From Oxynema aestuarii AP17 (GTDB lineage: Bacteria; Cyanobacteriota; Cyanobacteriia; Cyanobacteriales; Laspinemataceae): a DNA stretch of 64,000 nucleotides. The notes under the pieces are model-generated. The model was not told where the DNA came from. It ran no database searches and was given only the letters and a program-made list of their open reading frames with translations. The translations under genes and the position numbers were made by a program. The DNA is taken from positions 5,749,299 to 5,813,298 of the forward strand of contig NZ_CP051167.1 of NCBI RefSeq assembly GCF_012295525.1. The letters run 5' to 3'. This document shows positions 25,561 through 61,746 of this stretch, piece by piece; within the stretch, counting starts at the first letter, position 1; every line of letters begins with the position of its first letter.

Positions 25561-25588
25561 TAAGGACACGGCAATGCCGTGTCCTTAC
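25561..25588. repeat. Dispersed hairpin repeat, family member 3 (taaggacacggcaatgccgtgtccttac). A perfect 12-bp stem, and a candidate fabG terminator hairpin.
   Basis: Perfect inverted repeat aaggacacggca/tgccgtgtcctt 10 nt after the fabG stop, immediately followed by a heptamer repeat array. Confidence 0.6.
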
Positions 25589-25608: not shown

Positions 25609-25653
25609 CCAATCTACAATCTACAATCTACAATCTACAATCTAAAATCTAAA
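25609..25653. repeat. Heptanucleotide tandem repeat array (ATCTACA/ATCTAAA; reverse complement of the TAGATTT family)
   Basis: caatctacaatctacaatctacaatctacaatctaaaatctaaaatc, between convergent fabG and the pse-like cluster. Confidence 0.8.
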
Positions 25654-25654
25654 A

Positions 25655-26707
25655 TCAAATCACGTCCCAACTCACCGGAGTTCCCTTTTTTAAATCTTTT
25701 TTCACCACTTTCCCCAGCAGGATTGGATAATATTTGGGCGACAAGCCCAACCCGGGACGAATCGCCCGCAAATTCTCCGGCGTAAAACAGTCCCCCGCCT
25801 TCATATCTCGCGCCACATACAAAGAACGACGAAAGCCCATTGAAGCCCTTTCTGCGTCACTCGGGCCGTATTGAATTCGCCCCAATGATTGCCAAGCTTT
25901 TTGAGTTTCGATCGCCAATTGTTGCATCTCCTGTGGTTCCATCGAAAAAGCAGAATCGACACCTCCATCGGCTCGTCTGAGGGTAAAATGTTTTTCGATA
26001 AATGTGGCTCCAAACGCAACACTCGCCACCGCGACGCCAACACCCATCGTGTGATCGGAAAGACCGACTTCGACATCAAAAAGTTGGCGTAAATGGGGAA
26101 GCGTTCGCAAATTACTATTCTCTGGTGTCGCCGGATAGGTACTCGTACATTTTAATAAAATGAGGGATTGACATCCCGCTTCTTTCGCCGTTCTCACGGT
26201 TTCATCTAATTCGGCGATCGTTGCCATTCCTGTAGAAATAATTAACGGTTTTCCCGTACTGGCAACTTTACGAATTAAGGGCAAATCGGTATTTTCAAAA
26301 GAAGCAATTTTATAACAAGGAACGTCTAAAGATTCGAGAAAATCAACGGCAGTTGCATCGAAAGGTGTACTGAATCCGAGGATTCCCAATTGTTGGCAGC
26401 GATCGAAAATTGGCTGGTGCCATTCCCAGGGAGTATGTGCTTTTTCGTAAAGTTGGTAAAGAGAATAACCATGCCAAAGACTATCGGTATTGTTAATAAA
26501 AAACTCTCTTTCGGCGAGGTCGAGGGTCATCGTCTCCGCCGTATAAGTTTGTAGTTTAACTGCGGAAACTCCAGCAGCAGCCGCCGCTTCGACAATCTCT
26601 AAGGCACGATCTAAAGATTGATTGTGATTGCCGGACATTTCGGCCACAATAAAGGGCGGACGATCGATTCCAATCGAATAGTTACCAATTTTAATACTGT
26701 TCATCAT
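25655..26707 (-). CDS. pseI: N-acetylneuraminate/pseudaminic-acid synthase family (NeuB/PseI-type nonulosonic acid synthase)
   Basis: 350-aa ORF. The N-terminus FIVAEMSGNHNQSLDRALEIVEAAAAAGVSAVKLQTY is the NeuB TIM-barrel. A C-terminal SAF/antifreeze-like domain is present (RSLYVARDMKAGDCFTPENLRAIRPG). Confidence 0.85.
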   Translation of the reverse strand: MMNSIKIGNYSIGIDRPPFIVAEMSGNHNQSLDRALEIVEAAAAAGVSAVKLQTYTAETMTLDLAEREFFINNTDSLWHGYSLYQLYEKAHTPWEWHQPIFDRCQQLGILGFSTPFDATAVDFLESLDVPCYKIASFENTDLPLIRKVASTGKPLIISTGMATIAELDETVRTAKEAGCQSLILLKCTSTYPATPENSNLRTLPHLRQLFDVEVGLSDHTMGVGVAVASVAFGATFIEKHFTLRRADGGVDSAFSMEPQEMQQLAIETQKAWQSLGRIQYGPSDAERASMGFRRSLYVARDMKAGDCFTPENLRAIRPGLGLSPKYYPILLGKVVKKDLKKGTPVSWDVI

Positions 26708-26719
26708 TATTGAAGGTTA

Positions 26720-28264
26720 TTAAATATTATTGATATATTCCTGGATATATTCTTGCCTGGTTAAAGATAAACACAGGGCTGGCTGTCCGCAATAACTAAT
26801 GTTTTCTTTGAATTTAAAATAGCATTTAGAAAAGGCTTTAATAGAGGGCTTGTTTGTCGGTTTGATATAGGCGTGGACGATGGGAACGGTGGTATTTGAA
26901 AATAGCCTTTGCGTTCCCAAGCGAATCAAATGGGTTCCGTAACCCAAACCGCGAAATCGGCGATCGATATTGATGGAAACAACGGCTTCGTTCTCGACAA
27001 TTAAATAGCGAATCGAACCGATCGCGCGATCGTCGCGATCGAGTGCTAAATAAATCAATGAATTCGGATTCTTCAAGTGCGATCGCCACCATTGCACGTG
27101 ATGTTCCCAAGGGATGGGATCGCTGGAAAATGAGGTATTTCTTACATCCGGATCGTTGGCCCATTGCCACAGTAACCGACAATCGCGATCCTGGGGCGAT
27201 CGCAATCGAATCTTTTCGCCTTCTAAAACCATTAAAACTCGTTCGCTTCCTTCTCCATCTACGAGTTGACAGGCGCGTTGCGAGATTTGCGCGCATTTAG
27301 TTTTAGAACCTAGCAAATCGGCGATCGCCTGTGTCATTGTATGGAGGTCTAACTCTCGATAGTCTCCTAAGTTAATAGCGATCTTTTCTTTGGCTAAAGT
27401 TTCGGCGATCGCGCGTTGATTTTCCGCGAGAATCACCGTCAAACTCGGTAATCCCATAAACGCCAATTCCCAACAGGTACTCCCTCCGGCTGAAATCCCT
27501 AGATCGGCCCACGCCATTAATTCTGGCATATCGGTGACATTTTGCAGCAACCGAATTGAAAATGTTGAAGATCGAGCTGCTTTTTCGAGACTAGAATAAT
27601 GTGGATTACTTCCACCGACGACGATCGCGACATCTAAATCTGGGTTGTCTAAATTTTCTAAGGCTTGAATGACTTTTAAAGTCACGTTATCGGAATCGCC
27701 GCCACCTAATGTAACTAAAATTTTACGGGCGATCGGGGCAATTTCTCGTCGCCATCCTCGCCACGCCCAAAATTCACGGCGCAGTAAGGCGTAACGAGTG
27801 CCGAGTAACAGTTGGGTGTCGGGCGATCGCTGTTTGTAAAAGCTGTCATTGGCGTAAATATTTTGATTTAATATCCAATTGGCATAATAACTTTCACTAT
27901 GTCCGTAATCGTCTAAAAATAAAAAGTTTAACTGCGCTTCTGCGATCCTTTTTTGATACTTGGTTTTAAAGTGATAGCCGTCTAAAACCAAGTATTTTAT
28001 GTTCAATTTACGAGCAATTTCTATAGTTTTTTGGCAATCTTCTACACTACCGGGTTGCACTTCAATTTCGATCGCTTTCATTCCTTCTGCGTTGAGGCGA
28101 TCGGCGATCGCGCGGCTACAATCAGCCATGACGAAGATCGGGCGATCGCCGTTTTGTTTGGCAGCTTGCGCTAATGCCAAACAGCGCATCACGTGACCCG
28201 TTCCGATCGCTGTAGAGGCATCGGCGCGAATCAGAAATTTGAAGTTTGACTGATTATTGCCCAT
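26720..28264 (-). CDS. PseG-type UDP-sugar hydrolase fused to a C-terminal GNAT N-acetyltransferase (PseH-like)
   Basis: 514-aa ORF. The N-terminus FLIRADASTAIGTGHVMRCLALAQAA is a PseG/SpsG glycosyltransferase-28-like fold. The C-terminal ~170 aa carry a GNAT motif (RFRGLGYGTHLI). It overlaps the upstream cytidylyltransferase gene by 11 nt. Confidence 0.75.
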   Translation of the reverse strand: MGNNQSNFKFLIRADASTAIGTGHVMRCLALAQAAKQNGDRPIFVMADCSRAIADRLNAEGMKAIEIEVQPGSVEDCQKTIEIARKLNIKYLVLDGYHFKTKYQKRIAEAQLNFLFLDDYGHSESYYANWILNQNIYANDSFYKQRSPDTQLLLGTRYALLRREFWAWRGWRREIAPIARKILVTLGGGDSDNVTLKVIQALENLDNPDLDVAIVVGGSNPHYSSLEKAARSSTFSIRLLQNVTDMPELMAWADLGISAGGSTCWELAFMGLPSLTVILAENQRAIAETLAKEKIAINLGDYRELDLHTMTQAIADLLGSKTKCAQISQRACQLVDGEGSERVLMVLEGEKIRLRSPQDRDCRLLWQWANDPDVRNTSFSSDPIPWEHHVQWWRSHLKNPNSLIYLALDRDDRAIGSIRYLIVENEAVVSINIDRRFRGLGYGTHLIRLGTQRLFSNTTVPIVHAYIKPTNKPSIKAFSKCYFKFKENISYCGQPALCLSLTRQEYIQEYINNI

Positions 28265-28991
28265 ATTTTTTCTGTTCTATATGGGTATTAATTTTAGACC
28301 ATTCTGGATGGTTTTCTAACAATATCAAGCAATTTTTGAAGGTAAGTTTTTCTTCCGACCTAGACAAACTTTTAATTATTTTTTCAATCAATTGAAAATC
28401 TTCCGGGGTATCGACCGTCCAGCGATGATGACTGTTATTTTTCTTATCCTTTAAATGAGCGATTCGATAGCGTTGGGGCTGACGGTAAATAAATGGGGTA
28501 ACGTGTTCGCGATCGGGTTGGGCGGTTGCTTCTTGAAAAGCTTCTTCTAAACTCTTAAAAGAAAAGATTTCTGCATCCATTCCTCGGGGATACGTTCTCT
28601 CCAAACAGTTGGAGAAGTAATCGACTGGAGGCTGACTGTCGAGATAGCTTTGAATGAGGCGATCGACGATTTCGGGATCGATTAGAGGACAGTCGGAAGT
28701 GACGCGAATAATCGGATCGATTTGATACGTTTTTGCGGCGTGATAATATCGCGAAAGTACGTCATTTTCCGAACCGCGATAGTAAGCAATGGCGAGGCGA
28801 TCGCACCATTGAATGATGGGATTATCCGTTGCGTTTGTTGTCGTTGCTACAATGATGCGATCGGCCAGTCGAACTTGTTGCAATTGTTCGAGGTGATATT
28901 GCAAAAGCGGTTTGTCGAGAACGGTTTTTAACACTTTTCCCGGTAAGCGAGTTGAAGTCATTCTCGCTTGGGTGACGATACCGATGTTCAT
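28254..28991 (-). CDS. pseF: Acylneuraminate cytidylyltransferase family (CMP-nonulosonic acid synthetase, PseF/SpsF-like)
   Basis: 245-aa ORF. The N-terminus IGIVTQARMTSTRLPGKVLK is the typical CMP-NeuAc synthetase-family motif. It is the first gene of a three-gene minus-strand operon. Confidence 0.75.
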   Translation of the reverse strand: MNIGIVTQARMTSTRLPGKVLKTVLDKPLLQYHLEQLQQVRLADRIIVATTTNATDNPIIQWCDRLAIAYYRGSENDVLSRYYHAAKTYQIDPIIRVTSDCPLIDPEIVDRLIQSYLDSQPPVDYFSNCLERTYPRGMDAEIFSFKSLEEAFQEATAQPDREHVTPFIYRQPQRYRIAHLKDKKNNSHHRWTVDTPEDFQLIEKIIKSLSRSEEKLTFKNCLILLENHPEWSKINTHIEQKKYGQ

Positions 28992-29130
28992 TTTTAGGAA
29001 TCTACACTACGCCGAAATCGACTTAATTAGTATAGCATTGGCGCGGGCGATCGCCAAAAAGTACGGCATGATTTGCCGTACTTTCTCGGACTTCTAAATC
29101 TTGGTGAATTTAGAATTTATAGAACGGGGA

Positions 29131-29403
29131 TTACCACCATCGGCGATCGCCATTCTCATCCATTCTCGCTTGGCGAATCACGTCAGAAATTTCTTCCGCA
29201 TCTCGCACGTGATGGAGGGCTTCTTTATTTCCTTCTCCATCTTCAACGATAAAATAGGTGGGAATTTTAACGTGTTCCATCGTAATATCCGCAACATCTA
29301 CCGCGACTTGACGGGCTTTTTCTTCTAAAGTTTGCGATTCGTTAGGAACATAATCGCCAGGATTAATTGTTAAGTTTTTCGGTTCGTGTTCTTGGGTTCT
29401 CAT
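29131..29403 (-). CDS. Hypothetical small acidic protein
   Basis: 90-aa ORF with no recognizable motifs. A plausible RBS region is present. Weak call. Confidence 0.3.
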   Translation of the reverse strand: MRTQEHEPKNLTINPGDYVPNESQTLEEKARQVAVDVADITMEHVKIPTYFIVEDGEGNKEALHHVRDAEEISDVIRQARMDENGDRRWW

Positions 29404-43585: not shown

Positions 43586-46459
43586 ATGAATAAAGCTACA
43601 ACAACACGACGGCGAACCTCTACGGGTCTGCAGAGAACGGTTTTGTTCGCAACGATCGCCTGTTCCCTGTTCTCTTCGGGTACGATCGAACGACAGGCGA
43701 TCGCTCAAATCGTACCCGATGCGACCTTACCCGATCGCTCCACGGTCACCGTCGAAGGAAATACGATACAGATTACCGGAGGAACGGCGCGATCGCGCAA
43801 TTTATTCCACAGTTTTGAAAGCTTCTCGATCCCTACCGGAACAACCGCCACCTTCGACAACCCCCGGACGATCGAAAATATCTTTTCGCGGGTGACCGGA
43901 AGCGACCTGAGTAACATCGACGGTCTCCTCCAAGCCAACGGCGGCGCCAACCTCTTCTTAATCAACCCCAACGGCATCGTTTTCGGGCCGAATGCCTCCT
44001 TAAATGTAGGCGGTTCCTTTGTTGCAACCAGTGCGGACGCGGTCTTATTCGACGACGGCAGCCGTTTTAGCGCGATCGCCCCTCAAACCGACACCCTGCT
44101 CACCGTTAGCGTTCCCGTCGGCTTGCAATTGGGCGACAATCCCGGGGCGATCGCCATCAACGGAATCGGACTCGGGCGCAGTTTTGCCACCCCAGATTTC
44201 GACGGAAGCGAAACGGCGACCCAGAACGTCGAAACCGCGCGCCAAGAAATCGCCTTTCAACTGAGTATTCTCGCCCGCGAGGACGGGTTGGGGGTTCGAC
44301 CCGATCGCACCTTAGCCCTCGTTGGCGGTCCGATTGTCTTAGACGGGGCCTTATTAAAAGCCCCCCAAGGTCGAATCGAGTTGTGGTCCGGTCGCAACGG
44401 ACAACTGAGAACGACGGGAGAACGAGGAGAATTCGGGTTTGAAGAAACCTCCCCCTTCTCCTCATTTCAAGATATCTCCATCACCAACGAATCCGGCTTA
44501 TTCACCGGGTTGGGCGGCGATGGCGGCGTCCGCGTACACGGGCGCAATCTCACCATTACCGGAGGATCGGAAATTCGTTCCGACAGTCTCGGCGAAGAAG
44601 ATGGGGGCGAAATCGCCCTAGAAGCGTCGGAAGTCGTCGAAATTAGCGGGATTTCCAGAGATGGCACCTCTCGCACGATCGTCGGATCCGGCGCCTTCGG
44701 TAATGGCGATGCGGGTAGCGTCGAAGTGCGTGGGACCCAATTAAACGTGTTGGACGGCGGCTGGATTACCGTGGGAACCGTCAGCGACGGCGAAGCGGGA
44801 ACGATCGCGATCGCCACCTCAGAATCGGTAGAATTAAGCGGCATTCCCATAAATGGCCAATTCGCCAGCATCCTCGACGCTTCCACCCTCGGAGTCGGTA
44901 ACGCCAGCAATGTCGATATTACCACCCGGCGCCTGACGATGCGCGACGGCGCCCAAGTGCGCGTTCGAACCTTCGGCCCGGGACGGGGAGGCAACTTGAC
45001 CATCCGCGCCTCAGAATCGGTGCAGTTGAGCGGAACCGACCCCCAAACCGGAACATCGACCCAAATCGAGGCGACCGCTTACAGCAGTGGCGAGGCGGGG
45101 GAAATCGAGATCGTCACCCCCCTACTCAGTTTGAGCGACGGCGCCCAAATCGAAGCCGCCAGCAACGGGACGGGAAAGGGCGGCAGACTGGAGATCGAGG
45201 GGGCCGAGTTAGTAGATATTGCCGGAGTCAGTGCGGATGGGGAACGCAGTTTGCTGACGACGAAAGGGTTCGGGTCGGGAGACGCGGGGGACGTGACCGT
45301 GAGAACCCGCCGTTTGATCGTGCGCGATGGCGGCGAAATCGGGACGAGTACCTCGGTGGACGGGGTCGGCGGGTTGATGTTGTTGGAGGCGTCGGAGGCG
45401 ATCGAGTTTAGAGGGACCTCGCCGGATGGCAGTTTGCCGACCTTAATCACCGCCGATACCGACGGGGCGGGGAATGCGGGGAACGTGACGATCGCCACTC
45501 CCCGCTTGAGGGTGGGCGACGGGGCGATCGTGCTCTTGGGAACCTCTGGGGAAGGGAATGCGGGCCGTTTGCGCTTAGAGGCGACGGAAAGCGTCGAAAT
45601 CGTCGGGAATGCTCAAATTGACGCGCGCACCCTCGGATCGGGCAATGGCGGGGGCATCGCGATCGCCACGGACCGCCTCCAGGTGGCCGACGGATCCCGG
45701 ATCGGCGTCAACGGGGAAGGGACGGGAACCCCAGGCAATATTGAGATTGCGGCGTCGGACGTGCAACTCGATCGCGGCGCCTTGCAAGCGTCATCGGCGA
45801 TCGGAAAAGGGGGTAATATTGACCTGCGATCGCCCGATATTCTCTTACGCAATCGCAGCGAAATTGTCGCCGCAGGCAGTCAAACCGGGAATATTACGCA
45901 GGAAGGCAATATCACGATCGCCGCCGAAACCCTGGTATTGCTCGAAGCCAGCCAGATCGTCACCAGCGCCACGGACCCTCAAGGAGGCAGCAATATCGCC
46001 ATTAGCGCCATCCGAGGAGACGAGTTATTAGTTCTACTCTCTCCCGACAGTATTATCAATGCCCGAGGGCAGTTAAATATTGACGGCGATATCGATATCG
46101 AACCCGCCAATCTGCCCGAAGTCGAGGTCGCCGACCCGGATGCGGCGATCGCGCGCAGCCCCTGCAATCCCGAACAACTCGCCGAAAGTAGCTTTGCCAT
46201 TCGCGGACGCGGCGGCTTACCCGTCAATCCCGGTCAACCCCTCAGCCGCGACGGGGTGTCGGTGGAGTTGGTCGAACCCATCTGGGAGACCCGGGAGACG
46301 CCCTCGGCGGCCAACTCATCCCGCGATCGCCCTTCGGATCCTTTAATCGAGGCGCGCGGCTTCGATCGCACTGCCGACGGCCAAATCTTGCTGACGGCGG
46401 CGCGATCGTCCGGTGCCAGTTCGCCGCCTCACATCATGGACTTATGTTCTCCCGAGTAA
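43586..46459 (+). CDS. Two-partner-secretion (TpsA) exoprotein with an N-terminal filamentous-haemagglutinin TPS domain and a long beta-helical repeat region
   Basis: 957-aa ORF with a signal peptide. The TPS domain motifs are NLFHSFESFSIP, GLLQANGGANLFLINPNGIVFG and VGGSFVATSAD. Downstream there are many degenerate ~20-aa beta-helix repeats (..GDAGxVxV..L.v.dGa.I..). Confidence 0.85.
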   Translation: MNKATTTRRRTSTGLQRTVLFATIACSLFSSGTIERQAIAQIVPDATLPDRSTVTVEGNTIQITGGTARSRNLFHSFESFSIPTGTTATFDNPRTIENIFSRVTGSDLSNIDGLLQANGGANLFLINPNGIVFGPNASLNVGGSFVATSADAVLFDDGSRFSAIAPQTDTLLTVSVPVGLQLGDNPGAIAINGIGLGRSFATPDFDGSETATQNVETARQEIAFQLSILAREDGLGVRPDRTLALVGGPIVLDGALLKAPQGRIELWSGRNGQLRTTGERGEFGFEETSPFSSFQDISITNESGLFTGLGGDGGVRVHGRNLTITGGSEIRSDSLGEEDGGEIALEASEVVEISGISRDGTSRTIVGSGAFGNGDAGSVEVRGTQLNVLDGGWITVGTVSDGEAGTIAIATSESVELSGIPINGQFASILDASTLGVGNASNVDITTRRLTMRDGAQVRVRTFGPGRGGNLTIRASESVQLSGTDPQTGTSTQIEATAYSSGEAGEIEIVTPLLSLSDGAQIEAASNGTGKGGRLEIEGAELVDIAGVSADGERSLLTTKGFGSGDAGDVTVRTRRLIVRDGGEIGTSTSVDGVGGLMLLEASEAIEFRGTSPDGSLPTLITADTDGAGNAGNVTIATPRLRVGDGAIVLLGTSGEGNAGRLRLEATESVEIVGNAQIDARTLGSGNGGGIAIATDRLQVADGSRIGVNGEGTGTPGNIEIAASDVQLDRGALQASSAIGKGGNIDLRSPDILLRNRSEIVAAGSQTGNITQEGNITIAAETLVLLEASQIVTSATDPQGGSNIAISAIRGDELLVLLSPDSIINARGQLNIDGDIDIEPANLPEVEVADPDAAIARSPCNPEQLAESSFAIRGRGGLPVNPGQPLSRDGVSVELVEPIWETRETPSAANSSRDRPSDPLIEARGFDRTADGQILLTAARSSGASSPPHIMDLCSPE

Positions 46460-55673: not shown

Positions 55674-55989
55674 CGTTTGACTCCTTGGGTTTAGACAGAT
55701 CGATCGCGATTGTAAAGGATAAGAGCCCTCGGGGCGATCGCGCAGAATCTCTCGAATGTAGGGATTACCGAGGATCTGCGTAAACTCGGATGGGTATTTT
55801 TGGGGAGGTTCGTCCGGCGCACTCAAGCTAAAGTGGGAGAGAGTGCAGATCGCATCAATGCTCGTCGGTAAGATCACCCGTAAGGGCGATCGCCCGATTT
55901 TGACGGCTCTACCCATCGGTACGTTGCTGAGGTGTTTGACGCCGAGACAAGCGCTGCTTGCATCCCCTGTTTCTCCATCCTTAAAACCC

Positions 55990-61746
<5,757 letters not shown>

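Follow-up and report, generated by a model that had tools for sequence, protein, structure and literature searches.

Which nonulosonic acid does a short, AT-rich operon in the chromosome of the cyanobacterium Oxynema aestuarii AP17 serve, for how long has it been there, and from where does it obtain its substrate? The operon occupies positions 25655-28991 of the window, the whole stretch of 64 kb analysed, and consists of three tightly packed co-directional ORFs on the minus strand, whose coordinates agree exactly with those given by a sequence-only reading of the same DNA (Table 1). The first two ORFs overlap by 11 nt and a gap of 12 nt precedes pseI. The order proposed by that reading, namely a cytidylyltransferase, a PseG-GNAT fusion and a NeuB-family synthase, is borne out by the ORFs and their domain content. 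In the NCBI annotation for AP17, two of the three genes are already named PseG and PseI, the latter product as 'pseudaminic acid synthase [Oxynema aestuarii]'. The module is of an ordinary kind, has been annotated before and serves the final steps of pseudaminic acid synthesis; its sole unusual feature is that the first-step genes pseB and pseC, which are normally adjacent, are not nearby. We regard it as rather probable that one operon of AP17 provides the four post-aminotransfer activities leading to CMP-pseudaminic acid, as a long-resident set of cyanobacterial lineage which is detached from pseB and pseC.

Table 1. Features of the pseudaminic acid operon of O. aestuarii AP17 and its borders (window positions).
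Feature	Position	Strand	Remark
GC-rich inverted repeat	25562..25586		between convergent pseI and fabG; read from sequence
PseI, pseudaminic acid synthase, 350 aa	25655..26707	-	step 5
PseG-GNAT fusion ORF, 514 aa	26720-28264	-	
GNAT domain of fusion, residues 346-514	26720..27229	-	putative PseH-like 4-N-acetyltransferase, step 3
PseG domain of fusion, residues 1-345	27230..28264	-	UDP-2,4-diacetamido-2,4,6-trideoxy-beta-L-altropyranose hydrolase, step 4
SpsF/FlmC-type cytidylyltransferase, 245 aa	28254..28991	-	putative CMP-pseudaminic acid synthetase, step 6
Promoter-like site	29029..29057	-	-35 TTGGCG, 17-nt spacer with HIP1 site, TG-extended -10 TATACT
Terminator-like hairpin	29056..29081	-	GTACGGCA-loop-TGCCGTAC, then TTTTT; read from sequence

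The synthase reaches 493 bits with the curated equivalog model for PseI (TIGR03586, cut-off 340.25), whereas its 299 bits with the NeuB_NnaB model stay below the cut-off of 399.65. The protein consists of a Pfam NeuB TIM-barrel domain (297.6 bits) and a C-terminal SAF domain (48.5 bits). Its best solved relative is PseI of C. jejuni (8H2C; 283 bits, E 2e-83), compared with 176 bits for SpsE of B. subtilis. The counterparts of its residues E23, H240 and R317 in C. crescentus NeuB are E30, H245 and R322, which were chosen for mutation there. From its family, the enzyme is predicted to condense 2,4-diacetamido-2,4,6-trideoxy-L-altrose with phosphoenolpyruvate. Since PseI and PseG both exceed their NCBIfam cut-offs and related clusters hold bona fide pseB and pseC genes, the sugar is, on sequence criteria, of the pseudaminic and not of the legionaminic type. 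Of the earlier description as a pseudaminic/legionaminic-like module, the nonulosonic acid assignment and the pseudaminic part hold, and the legionaminic part is dropped on the scores against the PseI, NeuB, SpsE and PseG references.

In the case of the second ORF, the claimed fusion is real, as TIGR03590 and Acetyltransf_3/Acetyltransf_1 matches lie in one protein. The PseG model is matched by residues 9-290 over positions 2-280 of 280, with 234.1 bits (cut-off 153.55), and C. crescentus FlmD shows 29% identity to this domain (E 1e-30). The closest solved structure is C. jejuni PseG (3HBM), and H24 within the N-terminal GxGHxxR loop aligns with His17 of that enzyme, a residue said to be catalytic in the work of Rangarajan and colleagues from 2009. 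The two Pfam acetyltransferase families cover residues 352-483, and the GNAT domain carries an RGLGYG acetyl-CoA motif. With the PseH model TIGR03585 it scores 29.1 bits, far from the cut-off of 93.1, and we therefore label it a GNAT domain working like PseH and not a member of the PseH family. Its matches among solved structures are MJ1062 (3EO4, E 2e-9) and C. jejuni PseH (4XPK, E 4e-4), and its similarity to C. crescentus FlmH is weak (26% identity, E 9e-5). The same domain is the sole acyltransferase in 11 contiguous five-gene clusters of the order pseB-pseC-cytidylyltransferase-fusion-pseI, and in loci without the fusion a separate GNAT or a formyltransferase fills this slot. Genomic context and remote homology together suggest that the GNAT domain performs the PseH step. 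The fusion as such is common and not special: it occurs in 57 of 80 related loci from several phyla and in all of the best 120 database matches, and was reported as early as 2009, for FlmD of Aeromonas caviae.

The cytidylyltransferase is a member of the Pfam family CTP_transf_3 (111.6 bits) and is far below the cut-off of the PseF model TIGR03584 (23.1 against 205.7 bits). Over residues 1-222 it matches the structure 6OEW (E 1e-46), and with C. crescentus FlmC it shares 34% identity over 226 aa (E 4e-44) as well as the motifs ARMxSTRLPGKVL and DCPLxDP (here ARMTSTRLPGKVL and DCPLIDP). A grouping with SpsF-type spore coat enzymes had been named beforehand as evidence against a nonulosonic acid module. 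The protein does group with them through 6OEW, yet this no longer speaks against such a module and even supports it, because SpsF and FlmC are now evidenced as CMP-activating enzymes. Genetic and reconstitution data place both in nonulosonic acid pathways: the phenotype of an spsF mutant supports such a role in B. subtilis (PMC7439481), and FlmC of C. crescentus was the sixth enzyme in the reconstitution of Pse-dependent flagellin glycosylation in E. coli (PMC7591256). The Oxynema enzyme is not PseF and, judging from context and remote homology, would make CMP-pseudaminic acid in its place.

PseB and PseC are missing not only from the cluster, as noted in the sequence-only reading, but from the whole 64 kb, where tblastn with cyanobacterial PseB and PseC gave no hit (best E > 1) and Pfam annotation found no extended-SDR dehydratase or DegT aminotransferase among 35 other ORFs. 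No PseC from AP17 turned up among the database matches that share at least 78% identity with an Oscillatoriales PseC. At the place in AP17 that corresponds by synteny to the pse island of O. mangrovii CENA135 lies another polysaccharide island, whose first 10 kb contain no pse genes. For AP17, these negative results cover the window, the database matches and the said 10 kb, which is part of the genome. Among the 80 related loci surveyed, this block of cytidylyltransferase, PseG/GNAT fusion and PseI follows directly downstream of pseB and pseC, and both genes lie alongside in 60 of the 64 informative loci. They are equivalog-level members of their families (pseB 541 bits, cut-off 408, TIGR03589; pseC 561 bits, cut-off 424, TIGR03588). 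Detachment from pseB and pseC is thus an atypical trait of the AP17 module.

The sister species O. mangrovii CENA135 (95.8% ANI) possesses the module at a syntenic position among housekeeping genes, and none of the three ORFs is disrupted in either strain. Between them, dN/dS is 0.26 for the cytidylyltransferase, 0.18 for the fusion gene and 0.09 for pseI at dS of 0.14-0.18, which indicates purifying selection; the flanking genes compared range from 0.00 to 0.25, and the first two values are above most of these. In CENA135, pseB and pseC are located on another contig, on a separate, recently acquired island which shares 83-96% identity with the one in Phormidium sp. CCY1219. This island encodes a parallel set: PseG is unfused there, a formyltransferase takes the place of the GNAT, and PseI and a cytidylyltransferase are each encoded for a second time. 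A supply of PseB and PseC in trans is plausible by analogy, since CENA135 has these genes on another contig and pse genes divided over separate loci are on record for Aeromonas and Caulobacter.

A consensus scan and inspection of the sequence revealed a promoter-like site 38 nt upstream of the first ATG of the operon. It is a consensus match only, and its -35 and -10 hexamers are both identical in CENA135. The terminator-like hairpin next to it may close the upstream unit of a 90-aa ORF and a DUF2267 gene and thereby insulate the operon; in CENA135 the stem is kept and the loop alone differs. The GC-rich repeat at the opposite end is probably a bidirectional terminator. Neither structure was called by a simple terminator scan, and the T-run of the repeat is weak.

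The AT-richness that was claimed for the module is real and modest. Its GC content of 0.445, against 0.530 for the window, makes it the AT-richest 3.3 kb there. The deficit is about 0.083-0.085, or about 2.5 sd under the mean of same-length sliding windows (0.528, sd 0.033; lowest value outside 24-33.5 kb, 0.490). The AT-rich string quoted as an example is the 3' end of the fusion gene (26720-26752); it is present there with one mismatch (TTAAAT and not TTTAAT). GC3 is 0.419, 0.447 and 0.419 in the three genes, compared with a mean of 0.579 (sd 0.080) in 35 other genes (z = -1.7 to -2.0), just one of which is lower, and GC1 and GC2 are likewise under those of the host. As the neighbouring 90-aa ORF, the DUF2267, vault-protein and thioredoxin genes are also low in GC3, and the convergent fabG has 0.68, the region is not one clean island. 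The GC deficit exceeds the difference between module and flanks in any of 65 related loci compared; in most other genomes, GC in the module agrees with that of the flanks. The GC content below that of the host, together with this agreement elsewhere, makes an ancient transfer from a lower-GC cyanobacterium possible.

The motif HIP1 occurs eight times in the module (2.4 per kb) and 174 times in the window (2.7 per kb; 4.4 expected by chance). This density corresponds to that of the host, and the earlier interpretation of the HIP1 sites as a sign of long residence stands. All eight sites are in the first two genes, none in pseI, and every one is shared with CENA135. The modules of relatives carry 0-2.1 sites per kb, so that none reaches the density in Oxynema. 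Neighbour-joining trees place each of the three proteins within a cyanobacterial clade or at its base. Their branches are long and basal, and identities to other cyanobacterial sequences are 50-55% for the fusion, about 60% for the cytidylyltransferase and 72-78% for PseI. Pfam annotation of the window ORFs revealed no integrase or transposase flanking the module and placed it among housekeeping genes.

Three other explanations have to be weighed against these data. Recent import of a foreign island from outside the lineage, partly ameliorated since, takes up the foreign origin suggested beforehand. It would account for the lowest GC in the window, for GC3 about 2 sd under the mean and for a deficit unmatched in the 65 related loci, and pse clusters do travel as islands, as the one in CENA135 exemplifies. 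However, the proteins group within cyanobacterial clades or at their base, the module has the full HIP1 density of its host, the sister species keeps it at a syntenic site and under purifying selection, its flanks hold no mobility genes, and recently acquired-looking islands in these genomes are different (GC 0.28-0.45, HIP1 0-0.5 per kb). Among the signs of an island, only the compositional deviation was observed; HIP1 depletion, presence/absence variation, mobility genes and phylogenetic incongruence were not. The claim of a foreign origin is hence weakly supported, and we consider a recent import highly unlikely, whereas an ancient transfer within the phylum is possible and compatible with the long residence that we favour.

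It is also unlikely, although less so, that the operon is a relic whose genes were left without substrate after the loss or relocation of pseB and pseC, and which decays or is kept for another role. The two genes were not found in the parts of AP17 covered, nearly all informative related loci keep them adjacent, and dN/dS of the cytidylyltransferase and the fusion is higher than in most flanking genes. Against decay stand the intact ORFs in two species, dN/dS values far under 1, the conserved catalytic residues and promoter-like element, and the partial coverage of the AP17 genome by the searches. To a pathway for legionaminic or another nonulosonic acid of the B. subtilis Sps type (SpsF-type cytidylyltransferase, PseG-like SpsG, NeuB-like SpsE) we give almost no credence. 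The cytidylyltransferase is of the SpsF/6OEW type, and PseG-like and GNAT enzymes serve legionaminic acid in B. subtilis (PMC7439481), but the synthase is above the PseI and below the NeuB cut-off and nearer to C. jejuni PseI than to SpsE, the hydrolase exceeds its equivalog cut-off, the related clusters hold inverting PseB and PseC equivalogs and not PglF or LegB types, and the Pse pathway of Caulobacter uses the same type of cytidylyltransferase.

According to the pathway for pseudaminic acid that we prefer, the C-terminal GNAT domain would N-acetylate UDP-4-amino-4,6-dideoxy-beta-L-AltNAc, after which the N-terminal PseG domain of the same protein would remove UDP by hydrolysis. PseI would join the free sugar and phosphoenolpyruvate to pseudaminic acid, and the FlmC/SpsF-type cytidylyltransferase would make the CMP-activated donor. 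No glycosyltransferase or acceptor gene is linked to the module, and the product is presumably moved onto a surface glycoconjugate by an enzyme encoded outside the window. The module would be a long resident of the Oxynema chromosome that has since been physically separated from pseB and pseC, so that the first two steps must come from elsewhere in the genome; we infer both this source of substrate in AP17 and the acceptor of the sugar. More tentatively, and with considerable doubt, the operon may be a self-contained branch cassette which starts at UDP-4-amino-4,6-dideoxy-L-AltNAc with its own acyltransferase, hydrolase, synthase and activating enzyme, and receives PseB and PseC from strain-variable, recently exchanged surface-glycan islands. 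If so, Oxynema would retain in its chromosome a conserved way of making 7-N-acetyl pseudaminic acid, and in a cell of O. mangrovii a single trunk could lead to two pseudaminic acids that differ in their N-acylation. Should AP17 truly be without PseB and PseC, the substrate of the cassette would come from non-orthologous enzymes.

Compared with the CMP-pseudaminic acid pathway of C. jejuni and H. pylori (PseB, PseC, PseH, PseG, PseI, PseF), the chemistry of steps 3-6 would be the same, with PseI and PseG as members by HMM cut-off and the catalytic His of PseG conserved. In Oxynema, however, PseG and a GNAT domain that is remotely PseH-like form one polypeptide, a cytidylyltransferase from another family takes the place of PseF, pseB and pseC are unlinked and there is no flagellum. 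Fusion and splitting are both known from Aeromonas: A. caviae FlmD joins PseG to a RimL-like PseH domain, a likeness drawn from its description only, and A. piscicola and A. hydrophila have split pseBC and pseHFGI loci, at different chromosomal sites and in low-GC regions (PMC7874193). There, in contrast, the cytidylyltransferase is of the NeuA/PseF type and flagellin is glycosylated via Maf. In C. crescentus the pathway genes are scattered and an FlmC-type cytidylyltransferase gene lies immediately upstream of the PseG homologue (PMC7591256), whereas FlmD is unfused, FlmH is encoded separately and flagellin is the acceptor, through FlmG; in addition to the identities given above, its NeuB is 51% identical to the window synthase. 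The Sps system of B. subtilis (SpsM, SpsC, SpsD, SpsG, SpsE, SpsF) has the same cytidylyltransferase family, with 6OEW as the nearest structure to both, and likewise a PseG-like hydrolase, a GNAT and a NeuB-family synthase, but makes legionaminic acid. Apart from the two upstream genes pseB and pseC, which the modules of the window and of O. mangrovii do without, the five-gene clusters of Nostoc, Anaerolineae, Acidobacteriota and Methanoregula (loci L001, L034, L042, L049, L076 and others) share with Oxynema the three downstream genes, their order and the fusion.

The three minus-strand genes at 25655-28991 had been recognised in the sequence-only reading as a nonulosonic acid module, and this holds for the open reading frames, for the PseI and PseG cut-offs and for the GNAT fusion. 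Judged by homology, the functional call as a pseudaminic acid (Pse) module is essentially right. The synthase reached 493 bits on the NCBIfam model TIGR03586 (PseI; cut-off 340) and stayed below the cut-off of the NeuB model (299 vs 400 bits). Its top solved relative is C. jejuni PseI (8H2C, 283 bits), compared with 176 bits for B. subtilis SpsE and 170 bits for meningococcal NeuB, and its residues E23, H240 and R317 are aligned with those picked for mutagenesis in Caulobacter NeuB. The N-terminal 345 residues of the fusion protein scored 234 bits on TIGR03590 (PseG; cut-off 154), and alignment to C. jejuni PseG revealed that the catalytic histidine loop is kept (GTGHVMR, H24). The C-terminal part of about 170 residues is a GNAT domain (Pfam Acetyltransf_3/1). 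Since its likeness to PseH is weak (29 bits vs a cut-off of 93; 4XPK, E 4e-4; Caulobacter FlmH, E 9e-5), the assignment to the PseH step rests on cluster context. The exact proteins of the window are QIZ73123 and QIZ73124 of Oxynema aestuarii AP17; the existing NCBI names are 'pseudaminic acid synthase' and 'UDP-2,4-diacetamido-2,4,6-trideoxy-beta-L-altropyranose hydrolase'. The 21-kb neighbourhood of the module was also found on a 6.3-Mb JGI contig.

The cytidylyltransferase belongs to Pfam CTP_transf_3. Its classification as PseF was rejected (23 bits vs a cut-off of 205.7). It is close to PDB 6OEW (E 1e-46) and to Caulobacter FlmC (34% identity over 226 residues, E 4e-44), with which it has the motifs ARMxSTRLPGKVL and DCPLxDP in common; the FlmC sequence was translated from a synthetic operon given in the supplementary material of PMC7591256. 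In E. coli, Pse-dependent glycosylation of flagellin was reconstituted with a set of enzymes of which FlmC was the sixth (PMC7591256). For B. subtilis SpsF, which is required for the transfer of legionaminic acid to the spore surface and not for its synthesis, 6OEW was likewise reported as the nearest structural template (PMC7439481). Grouping with SpsF/SpsG-type enzymes had earlier been regarded as speaking against a nonulosonic acid role. This view is out of date: an SpsF-type grouping was found, and because of the evidence on FlmC and SpsF (PMC7591256, PMC7439481) it supports the role.

The Pse pathway of C. jejuni and H. pylori (summarised in PMC7591256) served as the model for the assignment of steps. 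Following this model, the GNAT domain would acetylate the PseC product at its 4-amino group, UDP would then be removed by the PseG domain, PseI would add PEP and the cytidylyltransferase would form CMP-Pse. Membership in the PseG and PseI families, the GNAT fold and the FlmC-type homology of the cytidylyltransferase can be read from the proteins themselves, and the roles of the four in the Pse steps are suggested by pathway knowledge together with cluster context. As acceptor, type IV pilin is a possible candidate, with a precedent in the non-flagellated bacterium Thermus thermophilus, whose pili bear a Pse derivative (PMC7203116); LPS, S-layer or porin glycans would be equally possible.

The three genes appear to form a single self-contained operon, because a promoter-like site and a hairpin upstream and an inverted repeat downstream, all recognised as consensus matches, delimit them. 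Both the promoter-like site and the upstream hairpin are kept in the sister species O. mangrovii CENA135, where the hairpin differs in the loop only. A tandem repeat of the heptamer CAATCTA (25610-25656; 6.7 copies, 97% matches) covers the stop codon of pseI, extends into the pseI-fabG spacer and adjoins the GC-rich hairpin. The pse operon is separated from the DUF2267 gene by an acidic ORF of 90 aa (29131-29403, minus strand), which is conserved (98% identical in CENA135), matches no family and has the lowest GC3 of the window (0.36).

Genes and putative signals of the pse module (window coordinates)
Feature	Position	Strand	Remarks
Cytidylyltransferase, 245 aa	28254-28991	-	ORF
PseG-GNAT fusion, 514 aa	26720-28264	-	ORF, 11-nt overlap with cytidylyltransferase ORF
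PseI synthase, 350 aa	25655-26707	-	ORF, 12-nt gap after fusion ORF
Terminator-like hairpin	29056-29081	-	perfect 8-bp stem followed by TTTTT; ends the unit of DUF2267 gene and 90-aa ORF
Promoter-like site	29029-29057	-	TTGGCG-17 nt-TG-TATACT, consensus match
GC-rich inverted repeat	between pseI and convergent fabG, downstream of module		

In a scan of one genome per species, relatives of the fusion protein were found at 80 loci, in cyanobacteria, Chloroflexota, Acidobacteriota, Desulfobacterota-like lineages, Bacteroidota and the archaeon Methanoregula. In most of them the genes for the cytidylyltransferase, PseG (usually fused to GNAT) and PseI occur together and in the same order. Both pseB and pseC, the genes for the first two Pse steps, are present in 60 of the 64 loci with enough flanking sequence; in Nostoc they lie directly upstream of the block and reach equivalog level (PseB 541 bits vs 408, PseC 561 bits vs 424). 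In eleven loci, pseB, pseC and the block form a strictly contiguous cluster of five genes, and the GNAT domain is there the sole candidate for the N-acetylation step. Other genes inserted in related clusters encode a Pse-associated methylase and the amidotransferase proteins WbuX/HisH/WbuZ. Where the fusion is missing, the slot between PseG and PseI is taken by a separate GNAT (n = 2), by a formyltransferase (n = 6) or by other tailoring genes, for example for a PIG-L deacetylase, a PhyH dioxygenase, a methyltransferase or a MaoC dehydratase. The PseG-GNAT fusion is a common and already known architecture, since it occurs in 57 of the 80 loci, both domains are found in all of the 120 best database matches (120/120), and it has been described before: according to the passage of PMC7874193 that cites Tabei et al. 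2009, Aeromonas caviae, like the window, carries PseG and a PseH-type (RimL-like) domain on one polypeptide.

The separation from pseB and pseC, which is conserved, is the only feature that makes the locus mildly unusual. Their absence from the cluster, noted before, extends to the whole 64-kb window, where tblastn with PseB and PseC of Nostoc gave no match below E = 1. Pfam annotation of 35 further ORFs of the window revealed an ordinary housekeeping neighbourhood (including infB, nusA, rimP, ggt, serA, prmA, trx, fabG, xfp and ackA) and no glycosyltransferase or mobility gene among them. In CENA135 (ANI 95.78%, genome GC 51.6%; PMC12895190) the three-gene module occupies the corresponding site and likewise lacks pseB and pseC; the detachment is therefore older than the split of the two species. 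The reading of the module as a dead relic is made unlikely by its genes, which in both species are intact and under constraint: dN/dS is 0.26 for the cytidylyltransferase, 0.18 for the fusion and 0.09 for PseI at dS of 0.14-0.18, and the eight flanking genes compared with CENA135 range from 0.00 to 0.25. A phosphoketolase pseudogene in CENA135, where no gene is listed, was rejected by tblastn, which found it intact at 98.5% identity.

As to the source of the first two steps, a protein search with Phormidium sp. CCY1219 PseC as query led to an O. mangrovii PseC (P0127) on a contig other than that of the module. None from AP17 was among the best 120 matches to this query, down to 78% identity, and in 90%-identity clusters P0127 was a singleton, with no O. 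aestuarii entry in the ten multi-member PseC clusters. CENA135 possesses a complete second pse cluster (L085; JAEOXH010000001.1, 3134161-3155363), comprising pseB, pseC, an AAC(3)-like acetyltransferase, DUF4910 proteins, a second cytidylyltransferase, an unfused PseG, a formyltransferase in the GNAT slot and a second PseI; a sulfotransferase and genes of unknown function follow. Its product is possibly a 7-N-formyl pseudaminic acid. By its composition (gene GC 0.28-0.45, GC3 0.20-0.42, 0.47 sites per kb of the host-specific repeat HIP1 across the locus) this island looks recently acquired, and the identity of its proteins to the cluster of Phormidium sp. CCY1219 (83-96%) suggests recent exchange among Oscillatoriales. 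Identities to the window are just 54-75% (cytidylyltransferase 64%, PseG domain 54%, PseI 75%), so the module of the window represents a separate and older lineage rather than a copy of the island. We located the AP17 orthologue of the dehydrogenase bordering the CENA135 island and read 10 kb beyond it. The syntenic site (L166 11100-21059, on the AP17-like JGI contig Ga0573901_01, 3655563-3676621) holds a different polysaccharide island with a Wzx flippase, a GT4 glycosyltransferase, three methyltransferases and an AsnB-like amidotransferase (GC 0.29-0.41, zero HIP1 sites), and no pse genes were found within these 10 kb. The site next to the zinc dehydrogenase gene appears to be a hypervariable surface-glycan locus. 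Planktothricoides raciborskii has two distinct PseC paralogues (P0257, P0269) on a single 7.2-Mb chromosome, so that genomes with more than one pse cluster are a recurrent finding in Oscillatoriales.

The module had been described as AT-richer than its surroundings, which was taken to suggest a foreign origin. GC profiling bore out the composition: no other 3.3-kb stretch of the window has so low a GC (0.445 vs a sliding mean of 0.528, sd 0.033), GC3 lies about 2 sd under the mean of the other genes, and GC1 and GC2 are low too. Low GC as an intrinsic property of these genes was rejected, since in 65 other loci the GC of the module tracks that of its flanks without systematic deficit; the deficit is thus specific to Oxynema. 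It favours a foreign origin, but this part of the proposal is weak in view of the synteny with CENA135 and of the evidence against a recent import, namely cyanobacterial tree placement, HIP1 at host level and sites common to CENA135. In neighbour-joining trees (identity distances, without support values) PseI falls within the cyanobacterial clade, and the fusion and the cytidylyltransferase are basal in cyanobacterial clades. PseI sequences from other cyanobacteria are 72-78% identical to that of the window, those from outside the phylum about 50%. HIP1 (GCGATCGC) occurs 174 times in the whole window vs 4.4 expected, and its density in the module is 2.4 per kb compared with 2.7 per kb in the host. 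All eight module sites are also present in CENA135, in agreement with the earlier view that the acquisition is old or the region ameliorated. Import of these sites from a cyanobacterial donor was rejected, because modules of relatives contain 0-2.1 per kb, each matching its own genome and none at the Oxynema level. The two strain-specific islands, with low GC and 0-0.5 sites per kb, differ from the module, which is therefore unlike recently acquired DNA. The most economical reading is that of an old resident whose GC has not fully converged and which was inherited or else taken up long ago from a cyanobacterium of lower GC.

Three other genes of the window, all on the plus strand, are worth mentioning. 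The product of the first (30666-33335) is a homologue of the Major Vault Protein (MVP), 889 aa long, which contains four Vault repeats, Vault_2/3/4 and the MVP shoulder domain; its identity to the O. mangrovii protein is 98%, dN/dS is 0.07, and GC3 is low here too (0.46). A preprint of 2023 on MVPs of viruses had already included cyanobacterial ones, that of O. aestuarii among them. A hybrid histidine kinase of 1967 aa (55843-61746) combines an ethylene-receptor-like N-terminal domain (ETR1_N) with four PAS, GAF, HisKA/HATPase, two receiver and Hpt domains. The N-terminal TPS (two-partner secretion) domain of a 957-aa protein (43586-46459) suggests a filamentous-haemagglutinin-like exoprotein.

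Pse has been studied mostly as a sugar of flagellin, pilin, capsule or O-antigen in pathogens. Its role in non-flagellated cyanobacteria is barely studied, although the gene set is widespread there; the published work we found merely notes that such clusters exist (PMC7005997). The locus could be a starting point for work on cyanobacterial surface glycans. For annotation, we propose to name the fusion bifunctional and the cytidylyltransferase a putative CMP-Pse synthetase. In the genomes compared here, old residents (2-3 per kb) and recent islands (0-0.5 per kb) are told apart more sharply by HIP1 density than by GC, which offers a practical calibration for Oscillatoriales. The current understanding of the Pse pathway is unchanged by the locus, which is a clean example of a conserved 'lower-half' operon apart from the first two pathway genes and an instance of an FlmC/SpsF-type enzyme in place of PseF. 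Compared with known systems it is ordinary, an annotated member of a widespread known pathway in which the fusion, the FlmC/SpsF-type enzyme and split loci all have precedents.
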